Below, in pieces: positions 4,485 to 8,508 of a stretch of DNA of 11,541 nt. The notes under the pieces were generated by a model. That model was not told the origin of the DNA and made no database searches. It worked only from the letters and a program-made list of their open reading frames with translations. How positions within the stretch are numbered: position 1 is the stretch's first letter; the number at the start of each line of letters is the position of its first letter. Source of the DNA: Promethearchaeota archaeon (GTDB lineage Archaea; Asgardarchaeota; Lokiarchaeia; Sigyniarchaeales; SOKP01); the NCBI GenBank assembly GCA_048941015.1, contig JBHLNZ010000090.1:1-11541 (forward strand), read 5' to 3'. The position numbers were made by a program, and so were the translations under genes.

Positions 4485-5102
4485 ATGGAAGAAAAATCGC
4501 CAAATAATTTAGAAAAAGTACAAATCAAAGGTATTTTTAAGAAAGAGAAAGTATTTATTTTGGATCCAAGAGGATTACAAGAATTTTATGAGAATTCATA
4601 TATAGGATCTATAGAGAAAGATGAAAATGGTAATGATATATTAGTTTTGGAAGCAATAGAGGTACTACTTTTAATAGAGAGACAGAGGATTCTTCTTTAT
4701 GAGGACAACGATGAGAATAAAGTTCAATATACCTTTGAAACAGCATTAGAACATTTTACCAATTATGATGAGAGATTGTGGCAAAAGTATATCATTTATA
4801 TGGATTTACGTAAAAGAGGATACATAGTTAGAGCTGGATATGGCGAAGGTATAGATTTTCGTGTTTATAAACGAGGAGCTGATGTTGAGAAAGATGCAGC
4901 AAAATTCTTAATATATCCTGTTTTTGAAGGAGATCCTATAGAATTAAAAGATCTCGACAAAATATCGAGAGTTGCTTTAAGTTCTCGTAAAGACTTAATA
5001 GTAGCAACAGTAGATAGGTTAAGCAAACCTATTTATTATAGCGTAAATAAATTCCAAATTATAAATAATGTCGAAATAGATGAAAGTGAGTATGCCAGAT
5101 AA
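4485..5102 (+). CDS. endA: tRNA-intron (splicing) endonuclease subunit, probably the structural (non-catalytic, beta-type) subunit
   Basis: N-domain helix LEAIEVLLL. C-domain YMDLRKRGYIVRAG...DFRVY...SRVALSSRKDLIVATVD...IYY. The catalytic His position (Tyr+10) is Ala, and the GxKFG-type motif is replaced by GYGEG. Confidence 0.88.
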   Translation: MEEKSPNNLEKVQIKGIFKKEKVFILDPRGLQEFYENSYIGSIEKDENGNDILVLEAIEVLLLIERQRILLYEDNDENKVQYTFETALEHFTNYDERLWQKYIIYMDLRKRGYIVRAGYGEGIDFRVYKRGADVEKDAAKFLIYPVFEGDPIELKDLDKISRVALSSRKDLIVATVDRLSKPIYYSVNKFQIINNVEIDESEYAR

Positions 5103-6744
5103 ATTTGCATGTGATACTAGTGTTATATTTAATGGTTTGATTTTAGATTTAATTGAAGATGGAGAATTAGGAGAAAAACCTGAAATTTTTATCTCTAATA
5201 TTGTTGTTGCGGAAGTAGAATATCGAACAAATATTCAAAAAGAAATTGGCTTTTTTGGTCTTCATGTATTAAGAGAATTACGTAACTTGCATAATGAAGG
5301 AAAAATTATTCTCCATATAATTGGAAAACGACCTACAAGAGAAGAAATTAAGATGGCTCCAGGGGGTGAACTTGATGCTCTTATAAGAGATCTTGCTCTA
5401 AAAAATGAAGCCATTTTGATCACTGCTGACAGAATTCAAGGAGATGTTGGAGTATTTGAAGGTTTAGAGATAATGTATGTTAAAGAGAAGGCTATACCTA
5501 GAAAAATTGGCCCTCTTTCTTTGAAATTGTTAGAATATTTTGATGAAACAACTATGAGTGTGCATCTTAAAAGAACTCTCCCTCCATATGCAAAAAAAGG
5601 AAGTCCTGGAAATTGGTATTTACAAAGAGTAAGAAATGAACCATTATCATCAAAAACAATTGAAGATATTGCTATTGAAATTATTGAAAATGTACGAGAA
5701 GATGAACATTCTTTTATTGAAATTGAAAAGTATGGTGCTGTTGTAGCTCAATTAAGAGAATTTAGAATAGTTATAACCCGCCCTCCTTTTTCGAATGATG
5801 TTGAAATTACTGCTGTACGTCCATTAGTAAATCTTACATTATCTGATTATTCAATAGATGCAAAATTACATAATAGAATAAAAAAGGCAGAAGGAATTTT
5901 AGTTGCAGGAGCTCCTGGAGCAGGTAAATCTACATTTTCAGCTGCATTAGCTAATTTTTATTTAGAGCAAAATAAAGTAGTAAAAACATTAGAAAGTGTA
6001 AGAGATTTACAAGTCAGGCCAGAGATAACGCAATATACTAAGCTTGAAGGAAATTTAGAGAATTCTGCTGATATATTACTACTTGTAAGACCTGATTTTA
6101 CAATATTTGATGAAGTACGTACCACAAAAGATTTTGAAATCTATTCTGATTTTCGTCTATCCGGTGTAGGAATGGTTGGCGTCGTACATTCTTCTTCTGC
6201 AATTGATGCAATTCAAAGATTTATCGGACGTATCGAACTAGGAATGCTTCCTTCGATCATTGATACAATAATTTTTATAGAAGGCGGAGATATTACGTCA
6301 GTATTAATATTAAAGATGACTGTTAAAGTTCCGCATGGATTTCGAGATAAAGATTTAGCAAGACCAGTGGTAGAAGTTAGAGATTTTAAATCAGATTTAT
6401 TAGCATATGAAATTTATTCTTTTGGACAAGATATTGTAATAAATCCTATTAATCCAGTCAAAGGATCAAAAACTGGAAAGTATAGCAAATATAAATCAGT
6501 AAGAGAGAAAAGAGGTTCACAACAAATCGATTTAGATATAAGTGTTGAGAAACAAAAGATAATACTTAAAGCAGATTTAGATTTTGCTAGTAAAAATATT
6601 ATAATATATTCTGATGGTCAAGAAATATTCACTGGCTCACTTAGTCGAAATGCAAGTATCTCACTTTCACTTTCTAACAAAGAAGGGAAACGAGTTTTAA
6701 AAGAATTTGAAAAATCGAGAAAGATTTATGCTATATTAAAATAA
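5092..6744 (+). CDS. PINA: PIN-domain (PINc/VapC) plus P-loop ATPase, archaeal Holliday-junction branch-migration ATPase family
   Basis: PIN acidic residues in CDTS, AEVE, GELDALI and ITAD. Family motifs FDETTMSVHLK, RIVITRPPFS..EITAVRP, LLVRPD and GVGMVGVVH..AIDAIQRFIGRIELG. Walker A is GAPGAGKS and Walker B is TIFDE. The start is probably ATG 5092 (MPDK), overlapping the endA stop. Confidence 0.92.
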   Translation: MPDKFACDTSVIFNGLILDLIEDGELGEKPEIFISNIVVAEVEYRTNIQKEIGFFGLHVLRELRNLHNEGKIILHIIGKRPTREEIKMAPGGELDALIRDLALKNEAILITADRIQGDVGVFEGLEIMYVKEKAIPRKIGPLSLKLLEYFDETTMSVHLKRTLPPYAKKGSPGNWYLQRVRNEPLSSKTIEDIAIEIIENVREDEHSFIEIEKYGAVVAQLREFRIVITRPPFSNDVEITAVRPLVNLTLSDYSIDAKLHNRIKKAEGILVAGAPGAGKSTFSAALANFYLEQNKVVKTLESVRDLQVRPEITQYTKLEGNLENSADILLLVRPDFTIFDEVRTTKDFEIYSDFRLSGVGMVGVVHSSSAIDAIQRFIGRIELGMLPSIIDTIIFIEGGDITSVLILKMTVKVPHGFRDKDLARPVVEVRDFKSDLLAYEIYSFGQDIVINPINPVKGSKTGKYSKYKSVREKRGSQQIDLDISVEKQKIILKADLDFASKNIIIYSDGQEIFTGSLSRNASISLSLSNKEGKRVLKEFEKSRKIYAILK

Positions 6745-6761: not shown

Positions 6762-7511
6762 TCATTTTAATATTTGCTTTACTTTTTCAACAATTGGAGG
6801 TAATACCTCCATTATATCATCGAAAAATCTTAGATCTGCCTCATAATCATATGGTGTTTCTCCTTGATTTAGGATTATTAATTTAGCGCCATAATTTTTA
6901 GCAATACCCGGCATATTCGCTGCAGGTGTTACAACTAAAGATGAACCAATAACAAAAAAAACGTCAGCATTTTCAGACCTTCTTATTGATTCTTCCAGTT
7001 CATCATAAGGTAAGGGATCACCAAAGTTAACAATACTTGATATGATCCTACCATTACAAGCAGGGCAAGTTGGTTGGCCTTTTCGAGGATTTTGTGTTCT
7101 ATATCCTTGACCCCACCTAGTTTTATCCCATCCTGCTTCTTCAAATGTCATTTTTAAATTACAATCCAGGCATTTCATAAAATACATATTTCCATGTAAT
7201 TCTGCTAACCTTTCAAATGGAATACCAGATTTTGCATGCAAACCATCAACATTTTGCGAAATCAAATAATTTAGTTTCCCTATACTTAAAAGATCTACAA
7301 TAGCGTAATGAGCTATATTTGGTTGCACCTGATCCCAGGGAGGACTTTTAGGAGGTGGTAATCCTTTATCTCTCCTCGTCCAAACTCCATCAGGACCACG
7401 ATAATCAGGTAATCCTGAATGAGTGGATATTCCCGCGCCTGTAAAAACTACTAGCTTTTTAGATTCAGCAATCCATTTAGCAGTCAGATCAATTTTTTCT
7501 TTAAGTTCCAT
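6762..7511 (-). CDS. NAD-dependent protein deacylase, sirtuin family, class IV (SIRT6/7)-like
   Basis: Motifs GAGIS, [25 protein letters not shown] (catalytic His), CxxC...CxxC Zn site, NFGD, GSSL and LNQGET. Confidence 0.95.
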   Translation of the reverse strand: [249 protein letters not shown]

Positions 7512-7557
7512 ATAGAATTAGAAAAGAAAAAAATAAATTAAAATTTATTTTAATTTT

Positions 7558-7677
7558 CTATTTAATTTCATTTAAATCAATTCCTTTTGTCTCTTTTATA
7601 TATAGGTAAATTAACGGTAAATTAATTAAAACCACTAGACAAATTACAATAAATGCTGATTCTTGGTTAAAGATTAT
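7558..7677 (-). pseudogene. Remnant of the C-terminus of an MFS (sugar-porter-like) transporter
   Basis: Manual translation of the minus strand gives IIFNQESAFIVICLVVLINLPLIYLYIKETKGIDLNEIK*. This is one TM helix plus the (P/K)ETKGxxLxEI terminal motif. An in-frame TAA lies immediately upstream (7678-7680) and there is no ATG. Confidence 0.7.
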
Positions 7678-7770
7678 TTAAAAATTTAATAGAAAAATTT
7701 CAATAAAATGTCTAAAAAAAATATCATATGAATTATTTTCAAAGAACTAAGCAATATACCAAAATCTCTA

Positions 7771-8508
7771 TTATTTTTCTTTAGAATGTTTTAGAATAGT
7801 GATAAGATTGCGTAAATTATCCTCTAAATTATAAAACTGAACCATTTCAAGTGGTTCTTCCACATTTCCTATTGTTGATACATGATGAGAATCACTACCT
7901 ATAGAAACAGGGATTTTGGCAGTAATTAGTTTTTCAAAAAATATTTTATTTACACTTGAATAACAATGAGAATAACTTGAATTGAATTCAAAAAATACAT
8001 TATATTTACATAGAAATTTTATCAATATATCTAGGTTTCCATGAATGAAAAATGAAGGATCGAAATGTGCTAAACCAAAAACACAGGGCTTATCTTCATT
8101 GTTTATACGTCTCATCCAATATTCAAGTAAGTTGTTAATAAAAGCAATACCTTCCGGACTTTCTAAATATTCAAACAGAATAATATCAAAATTTAAGGGG
8201 TTTACTAATTTTAAAATATATCTCTGAGAACTTGAAATATCAATCTCCACACCCCTAAGAAGCATCAAATCTATATCTTTATCATATAAGTATTTTTGAC
8301 ATACGGATATTTGGTCAAGATAATTTTCAATTTTTTCATTACTGTTTAAACTTGGAATAATATTCGATTTCCAGGAATTAGTTAAATGATCAGTGATACA
8401 AATAATTTTTAATAACTTTATGGATTTTTCAACTATATTTGGTATGCTATTATTACCATCAGAGAAATTTGAATGAATGTGTAAATCTATTTTGGGTAAA
8501 TCTTTCAT
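7771..8508 (-). CDS. Stand-alone PHP-domain metal-dependent phosphoesterase (YcdX / HisPPase / PolX-PHP-like)
   Basis: Metal-binding motifs DLHIHSNFSDG, ITDH, GVEID, LAH, EFN and GSDSH. Confidence 0.9.
   Translation of the reverse strand: MKDLPKIDLHIHSNFSDGNNSIPNIVEKSIKLLKIICITDHLTNSWKSNIIPSLNSNEKIENYLDQISVCQKYLYDKDIDLMLLRGVEIDISSSQRYILKLVNPLNFDIILFEYLESPEGIAFINNLLEYWMRRINNEDKPCVFGLAHFDPSFFIHGNLDILIKFLCKYNVFFEFNSSYSHCYSSVNKIFFEKLITAKIPVSIGSDSHHVSTIGNVEEPLEMVQFYNLEDNLRNLITILKHSKEK

Follow-up and report, generated by a model that had tools for sequence, protein, structure and literature searches.

In Frye's scheme of 2000, class IV of the sirtuins, which holds human SIRT6 and SIRT7, is said to be eukaryote-only. 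The first-pass annotation of the gene described here relied on that premise, which is outdated: a review of bacterial sirtuins reports class IV in bacteria (PMC8603916), and in the phylogeny of Grau-Bove et al. (2022; bioRxiv 10.1101/2021.11.30.470311), SIRT7 is the sister of a Heimdall/Loki sirtuin clade, with good support. Also, three sirtuins from Lokiarchaeum have been assayed (bioRxiv 10.64898/2026.07.02.735847). LoSIR2a and LoSIR2c are canonical according to the supplementary table of that study, while LoSIR2b (GNAMCCOK_01652, from Ca. Lokiarchaeum ossiferum Loki-B35) belongs to an Asgard clade named SIR2b. Of the three, it was LoSIR2b that removed acetyl groups in vitro from peptides of the lysine-rich Loki histone tails and from yeast H4K16ac peptides in an NAD-dependent reaction, and its activity is robust and comparable to that of SIRT1. 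The same study found that Asgard SIR2 enzymes rescue the silencing defect of yeast sir2. Both the kinship of compact Asgard sirtuins to SIRT6/7 and the histone-tail activity of our protein's counterpart are thus already published.

We examined a compact sirtuin gene from another Asgard archaeon. It lies in an 11,541-nt stretch of DNA, which we refer to as the window. The open reading frame is intact, from the ATG at 7509-7511 to the stop codon at 6762-6764 on the minus strand, and the start residue agrees with that of the close homologues at two related loci (L006 and L007). The protein matches the Pfam family SIR2 (PF02146) with 113.9 bits, where the cut-off is 24 bits. From the sequence and the alignment, the catalytic histidine, the QNxD and GAGxS motifs for NAD, and the four zinc-binding cysteines are all present (Table 1). 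We take the QNVD motif to contact the ribose and the nicotinamide of NAD, and the GSS motif presumably binds the NAD phosphates. The gene presumably has its own promoter in the AT-rich spacer.

Table 1. Features of the compact sirtuin gene and its upstream spacer, in window coordinates.
Feature	Position	Strand	Basis
Whole gene: compact (class-IV-like) sirtuin, 249 aa	6762..7511	-	ORF and Pfam SIR2 match
GAGIS NAD-binding motif, residues 25-29	7425..7439	-	G25, G27 and S29 invariant in 62 homologues
18-residue linker, residues 46-63, replacing the canonical helical module	7323..7376	-	alignment and AF2 model
QNVD motif (Q86, N87, D89)	7245..7256	-	invariant columns
HGN motif with catalytic His106, in a class-IV-type AELHGNM context	7188..7196	-	H106 and G107 invariant; matches SIRT6 AELHGNM
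Zinc-binding module C114-x2-C117 ... C149-x2-C152	7056..7172	-	Cys columns conserved
Zinc-module insert (...QPT), residues 127-148	7068..7133	-	regional alignment; motif also in LoSIR2b
GSS motif (G189-S191), Rossmann fold	6939..6947	-	conserved columns
AT-rich spacer, 259 nt, GC ~0.24, upstream of the sirtuin gene	7512..7770	.	base composition

The window protein resembles LoSIR2b in its size, in its linker (18-19 residues, ...QVQPN in LoSIR2b), and in its SQNVDGLH...AELHGN motifs. It also has the insert in the zinc module, with the pattern WD..KWG.GYRT...QP.CPAC (WD..KWGNGYRT...QPGCPAC in LoSIR2b, from the supplementary table). So the two hallmarks of the SIR2b clade, the short linker and the WD..WG.GYRT insert, can be read by motif in the window protein. 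The two proteins are ~58% identical, as aligned by eye, and the assays are those of LoSIR2b. When we looked for the LoSIR2b motifs among the homologue loci and proteins that we had collected, we found no match.

The short linker is what sets the protein apart from canonical sirtuins. The first-pass annotation had counted 18 residues between RGPDGVWT and PNIAH and had stated that the helical module is missing. The count is exact in the 249-aa translation, and the Pfam SIR2 match is split into two pieces, with profile positions ~27-57 unmatched. In the AlphaFold2 (AF2) model, residues 43-61 form only short helical turns. The genome (3.59 Mb in 144 contigs) encodes three more sirtuins on other contigs. 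These match the full SIR2 profile, and they have 16-18 extra residues where the window protein has the short linker. The spacing from GAG to SQN is 60 in the window protein and 59-63 in eukaryotic class IV proteins, versus 76-83 in canonical sirtuins.

Among solved structures, SIRT6 is the best relative of the window protein by both sequence and fold, which bears out the assignment to a class IV (SIRT6/7) architecture. When we ran phmmer against the PDB, human SIRT6 came first (E = 1.5e-48), as a single stretch in which residues 2-243 of the query align to residues 29-268 of SIRT6. Sir2Af2 was second (2e-43, in two stretches), and SIRT7 was matched at 1e-30. The alignment to 3pki_A also confirms the strings that the first-pass annotation had quoted for human SIRT6, with 18 residues from GVWT to PTQTH and with ADLRI. 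In this alignment, the N-terminal half of the window protein aligns to SIRT6 free of gaps, and the ADLR motif is common to both proteins, as had been claimed.

A comparison of an AlphaFold model with SIRT6 had been proposed as well. Our AF2 model (from 62 homologues) has a mean pLDDT of 96.1 and a pTM of 0.91, and SIRT6 is its best fold match. With Foldseek, the best ~30 matches listed were all SIRT6 (TMq of 0.83-0.85), while Sir2Af2 and Sir2Tm had TMq of 0.68-0.75. With VIA-align, SIRT6 had Z of 30.1 and an rmsd of 2.0 Å over 233 residues, and Sir2Af2 had Z of 28.3 and an rmsd of 4.0 Å. As judged from the model, the preference for SIRT6 over Sir2Af2 is clear by rmsd but modest by Z. The Rossmann and zinc-module fold of the model matches solved sirtuins at Z of 23-30. 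Sir2Af2 (PDB 1ma3) and Sir2Tm have the same catalytic core and the same CxxC...CxxC zinc site as the window protein (Z of 26-28). Unlike the window protein, they have the helical module, and therefore they match in two stretches and with an rmsd of 4 Å.

The window protein and human SIRT6 (PDB 3k35, 3pki, and 8f86) both lack the helical module, both align without gaps from GAGIS to HGN, and both have the AELHGNM and ADLR motifs. However, they are just 36-38% identical. The window protein also lacks the N-terminal (SIRT6 residues 1-27) and C-terminal extensions and has nothing beyond the core. The second pair of zinc ligands is CxxC in the window protein and is spaced in SIRT6, and the loop of the zinc module differs.

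To describe the distribution of the compact sirtuin, we start with the Asgard archaea. A search of 5.8 billion proteins gave thousands of matches, and the best 120 were from Asgard MAGs (76-89% identity). Among 301 genomes sampled evenly from the window's phylum, 110 have strong orthologues (E <= 1e-60). Of the 68 genomes from the window's own family, 57 have the compact sirtuin, at 65-89% identity; nine further Asgard families have strong matches, at 43-60% identity. Because the protein is conserved within its own family and across other Asgard families, it is not a chance reading frame. At the same threshold, none of the 76 sampled genomes from one family (f9) had a match.

Four genomes in this sample contain tandem duplicates of the compact sirtuin. 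In one genome of the window's own family (G210:C9:775000-777500, locus L094), one copy of the pair is 82% identical but is interrupted: it has two in-frame stops, a TGA and a TAG, inside ~27 extra bases. At this place, the window gene has no interruption. G273, G279, and G240 have tandem pairs too. Separately, the proteins with 76-81% identity come from MAGs that NCBI names as Odin-, Thor-, Heimdall-, or Hermodarchaeota. In our GTDB-based sample, only genomes from the window's own family reach 65% identity, so these labels from the submitters look unreliable, and we left them out as evidence of breadth.

More broadly, we searched a representative library of 1.84 billion proteins, and we scanned one genome per prokaryotic species for the pattern of the short linker. 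The representative library yielded a few archaeal or unnamed relatives and then full-length matches to long proteins with ~37-45% identity. The six long matches with a named source or from EukProt were all eukaryotic: a fish SIRT6, a lycophyte, Mantamonas, Pelomyxa, a EukProt transcript, and a chytrid. We took the eukaryotic origin of matches from a look-up of names and from a profile search. Many class IV sirtuins from protists (P0198, P0235, P0299, P0367, and others) have Kelch repeats or a ZnF-UBP domain (PF02148) as fusion partners. Three metagenomic relatives with 48-61% identity, P0121 (408 aa), P0128 (537 aa), and P0131 (481 aa), have N-terminal extensions of 160-290 residues, and no Pfam family matched these extensions.

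The pattern scan found short-linker sirtuins, with 59-61 residues from GAG to SQN, in many bacteria. The carriers include Dehalococcoidia and other Chloroflexota (on contigs of up to 1.77 Mb), MAGs labelled as Deltaproteobacteria or Syntrophia, one MAG from the Planctomycetota, and a high-GC group with labels of Actinomycetota, Acidobacteriota, or Proteobacteria. With a G+C content of 44-70%, the bacterial loci do not represent mis-binned Asgard DNA. The bacterial short-linker sirtuins have 48-59% identity to the window protein, versus 38-45% for the eukaryotic proteins. For instance, a homologue from Chloroflexia is 49% identical to the window protein (E = 5e-84), while the fish SIRT6 is 38% identical; the best match of the Chloroflexia protein in the PDB is also SIRT6 (1.5e-44). 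Homologues as close as the eukaryotic ones, or closer, are thus widespread in bacteria, which largely corresponds to a finding that the first-pass annotation had named as counting against its reading.

The compact sirtuins from Dehalococcoidia or other Chloroflexota and from "Deltaproteobacteria" (such as L029 and L045, whose contigs are 0.64 and 1.77 Mb long) resemble the window protein in the short linker and in the motifs, at 48-52% identity. Unlike the window protein, they lack a 19-residue insert in the zinc module, and their hosts lack histones. In the Chloroflexia homologue, this shows up as a 19-residue gap at the insert. The insert (GWD..WG.GYRT) is present in the Asgard clade and in a small clade of high-GC bacteria, and the Chloroflexota clade lacks it. 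This pattern fits our phylogenetic tree, which groups the high-GC bacteria with the Asgard archaea.

We built the tree with IQ-TREE (LG+C20+F+G4 by PMSF; 80 rows and 258 columns) and rooted it with 18 canonical prokaryotic sirtuins, including the three paralogs from the same genome. Unnamed metagenomic sequences, eukaryotic classes I-III, and LoSIR2b were left out. Supports are given as ultrafast bootstrap / SH-aLRT. All the short-linker sirtuins fall into a single group (100/99), which splits into a eukaryotic class IV clade (100/100) and a prokaryotic clade that contains the window protein (94/90). Within the prokaryotic clade, there is a Chloroflexota/delta clade (95/97), and the high-GC bacteria join the Asgard archaea (76/76), whose sequences form a group of their own (80/86). 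In an extended quick tree with fungal proteins named sirtuin-7 and with more protists, the topology was unchanged and the short-linker group had an SH-aLRT of 99.

Could the short linker be convergent, with an ordinary archaeal sirtuin of class U or III having lost its helical module independently? Sir2Af2 is the second-best relative in the PDB, and the best family matches in NCBIfam are CobB models, but we consider convergence very unlikely. Classification with HMMs had been proposed as a check, and none of the seven NCBIfam models for CobB or deacylases (NF040867, NF001753, and others) reaches its curated cut-off (203 versus 320 bits for the best, and 197.8 versus 243 bits). Also, the linker sequence (WT.RDKGL.PPK) and the motifs that follow (SQNVD.LH..SG....LAELHGN) are common to the short-linker group and eukaryotic class IV. 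The canonical sirtuins from the same genome fall in the outgroup, beside Sir2Af2 and Sir2Tm. Because the short-linker group is separated from the canonical sirtuins with 100/99 support, its members have the deletion in common and did not acquire it independently. The likeness to class IV is homologous.

The tree agrees with the first-pass annotation that this is a prokaryotic sister of the SIRT6/7 lineage, since the prokaryotic clade is the sister of the eukaryotes. It does not agree with the label of a eukaryotic signature: the window protein lies outside the exclusive eukaryotic SIRT6/7 clade, and the sister of the eukaryotes is a mixed clade of bacteria and Asgard archaea, not the Asgard archaea alone. 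The window protein is thus a sister of SIRT6/7 rather than a eukaryotic signature. The Asgard clade of Grau-Bove et al. (bioRxiv 10.1101/2021.11.30.470311) consists of proteins of the same kind, and we make the same claim that Asgard archaea have relatives of class IV. In contrast to their tree, the clade that includes our protein also includes bacteria, and it is the sister of eukaryotic class IV as a whole rather than of SIRT7, with no verified animal SIRT7 among our sampled sequences. We tried to identify a eukaryotic subgroup with SQNCD as SIRT7, but one of its members (P0152) scores higher to SIRT6 than to SIRT7 in the PDB. Another eukaryotic match, P0141, is also nearer to SIRT6 than to SIRT7 in the PDB search. 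Only some fungal members carry the name sirtuin-7.

It is possible, but in our judgment rather unlikely, that the Asgard clade is the specific sister or the direct ancestor of SIRT6/7, with vertical inheritance at eukaryogenesis, and that bacteria obtained their copies by horizontal transfer. With Asgard archaea and eukaryotes constrained together, the tree is not rejected by an approximately unbiased (AU) test (delta lnL = 3.33, p = 0.406), and Grau-Bove et al. (2022) did recover a well-supported Asgard clade as the sister of SIRT7. However, our best trees place the Asgard sequences with bacteria (94/90) and the eukaryotes outside, the Asgard protein is nearer to bacterial homologues (49%) than to eukaryotic ones (38%), and large Asgard families such as f9 have no orthologues. 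With a single short alignment, the link between Asgard archaea and eukaryotes is neither recovered nor rejected. A more elaborate scenario, which we view as more doubtful still, would combine vertical ancestry of SIRT6/7 in the Asgard clade and secondary transfers to bacteria with a role for the basic, aromatic insert (residues 127-148) as an early element for docking onto histones or DNA. The analogy for the insert is the zinc-finger loop of SIRT6, which contacts the nucleosome.

The rest of the window has ~29% G+C and archaeal-type genes, including a subunit of the tRNA-splicing endonuclease, a HycI-type hydrogenase maturation protease, and a PIN-ATPase. Using tblastn with ten proteins from the window against 40 related loci, we found that the synteny with EndA, PIN-ATPase, and HycI is kept only in the close relatives L006 and L007; at the other Asgard or bacterial loci among the 40, no neighboring gene was linked to the sirtuin. 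Because the synteny is confined to close kin, the neighborhood gives no functional inference. On the plus strand (4485-6744), the gene for the tRNA-intron endonuclease subunit (PF01974/PF02778) runs into the beginning of the gene for the 554-aa PIN and ATPase protein, and this pair and HycI are convergent to the sirtuin in L006 and L007 as well. On the same strand as the sirtuin and 259 nt upstream of it is a gene for a PHP-domain phosphoesterase (7771-8508, minus strand). In L007 as well, this gene is close to the sirtuin, but in L006 it is not. Another gene on the minus strand (1518-2768) encodes a 416-aa multi-pass membrane protein that has a cysteine-rich C-terminal tail with four CxxC pairs and no Pfam match. 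Scans of the whole window for tRNAs and Rfam families found nothing.

SIR2 domains are common in defense systems, which raises the question of whether the protein might be an anti-phage NADase effector. We give this idea almost no weight. The sirtuin and its two neighbors had no match to the PADLOC models of defense systems, the full zinc module and the catalytic set of a deacylase are present, and the gene stands alone, without a sensor partner. Also, its closest relatives are deacylases.

Instead, the most likely function is the deacetylation of lysines in proteins, probably including lysine-rich histone tails. We are fairly confident that the gene encodes a compact, stand-alone NAD+-dependent lysine deacylase, the counterpart of LoSIR2b, which likely acts on histone tails and on other acetylated proteins. 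The protein comprises a Rossmann domain that binds NAD and a zinc module of the Cys4 type, and the 18-residue linker joins the two. From the conservation and the model, His106 is predicted to be the general base, and Asn87, Asp89, and the GAGIS loop would position NAD+. By established sirtuin chemistry, the acyl-lysine would attack C1' of the nicotinamide ribose, and the products would be nicotinamide, the free lysine, and O-acyl-ADP-ribose. The window protein is the catalytic core only. In SIRT6 and SIRT7, the N- and C-terminal extensions serve for chromatin or nuclear targeting.

The genome encodes five histones. One of them (G000:C137:9215-12391, locus L099) has a lysine-rich N-terminal tail, MAKKKPAPKKKAE, whereas in the other four any extension is limited to a few residues. 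The tail of this one histone is a likely substrate, probably along with other acetylated proteins. The idea of a histone substrate is plausible because LoSIR2b, an enzyme of the same type, deacetylates the tails of Loki histones. Since bacteria without histones often have this type of enzyme too, histone tails cannot be the sole or ancestral substrate, and a broader range of substrates is likely.

Alternatively, the protein might be mainly a long-chain defatty-acylase or a mono-ADP-ribosyltransferase and a weak deacetylase, as human SIRT6 is in vitro. The SIRT6-like architecture and the structural match to SIRT6 are consistent with this, and the JGI pipeline automatically named some close homologues "mono-ADP-ribosyltransferase sirtuin 6". 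We nevertheless think that this is improbable: LoSIR2b, which is of the same type, is a robust deacetylase at a level like that of SIRT1, and the window protein begins at the position of SIRT6 residue 28, so it lacks the N-terminal segment of SIRT6. In SIRT6, that segment contributes to the acyl channel.

The window gene is one more orthologue of a known compact sirtuin. The idea of histone erasers in Asgard archaea is already in the literature, from phylogeny in 2022 and from biochemistry and yeast complementation in 2026. What we add is a caution: the compact architecture is not a signature of Asgard archaea and eukaryotes, as many Chloroflexota and other bacteria have it, and from the tree of a single gene one cannot tell whether eukaryotes obtained the compact sirtuin from Asgard archaea. 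If Asgard archaea did have a SIRT6/7-type eraser that acted on tailed histones, then some of the chromatin toolkit of eukaryotes would be older than eukaryogenesis.
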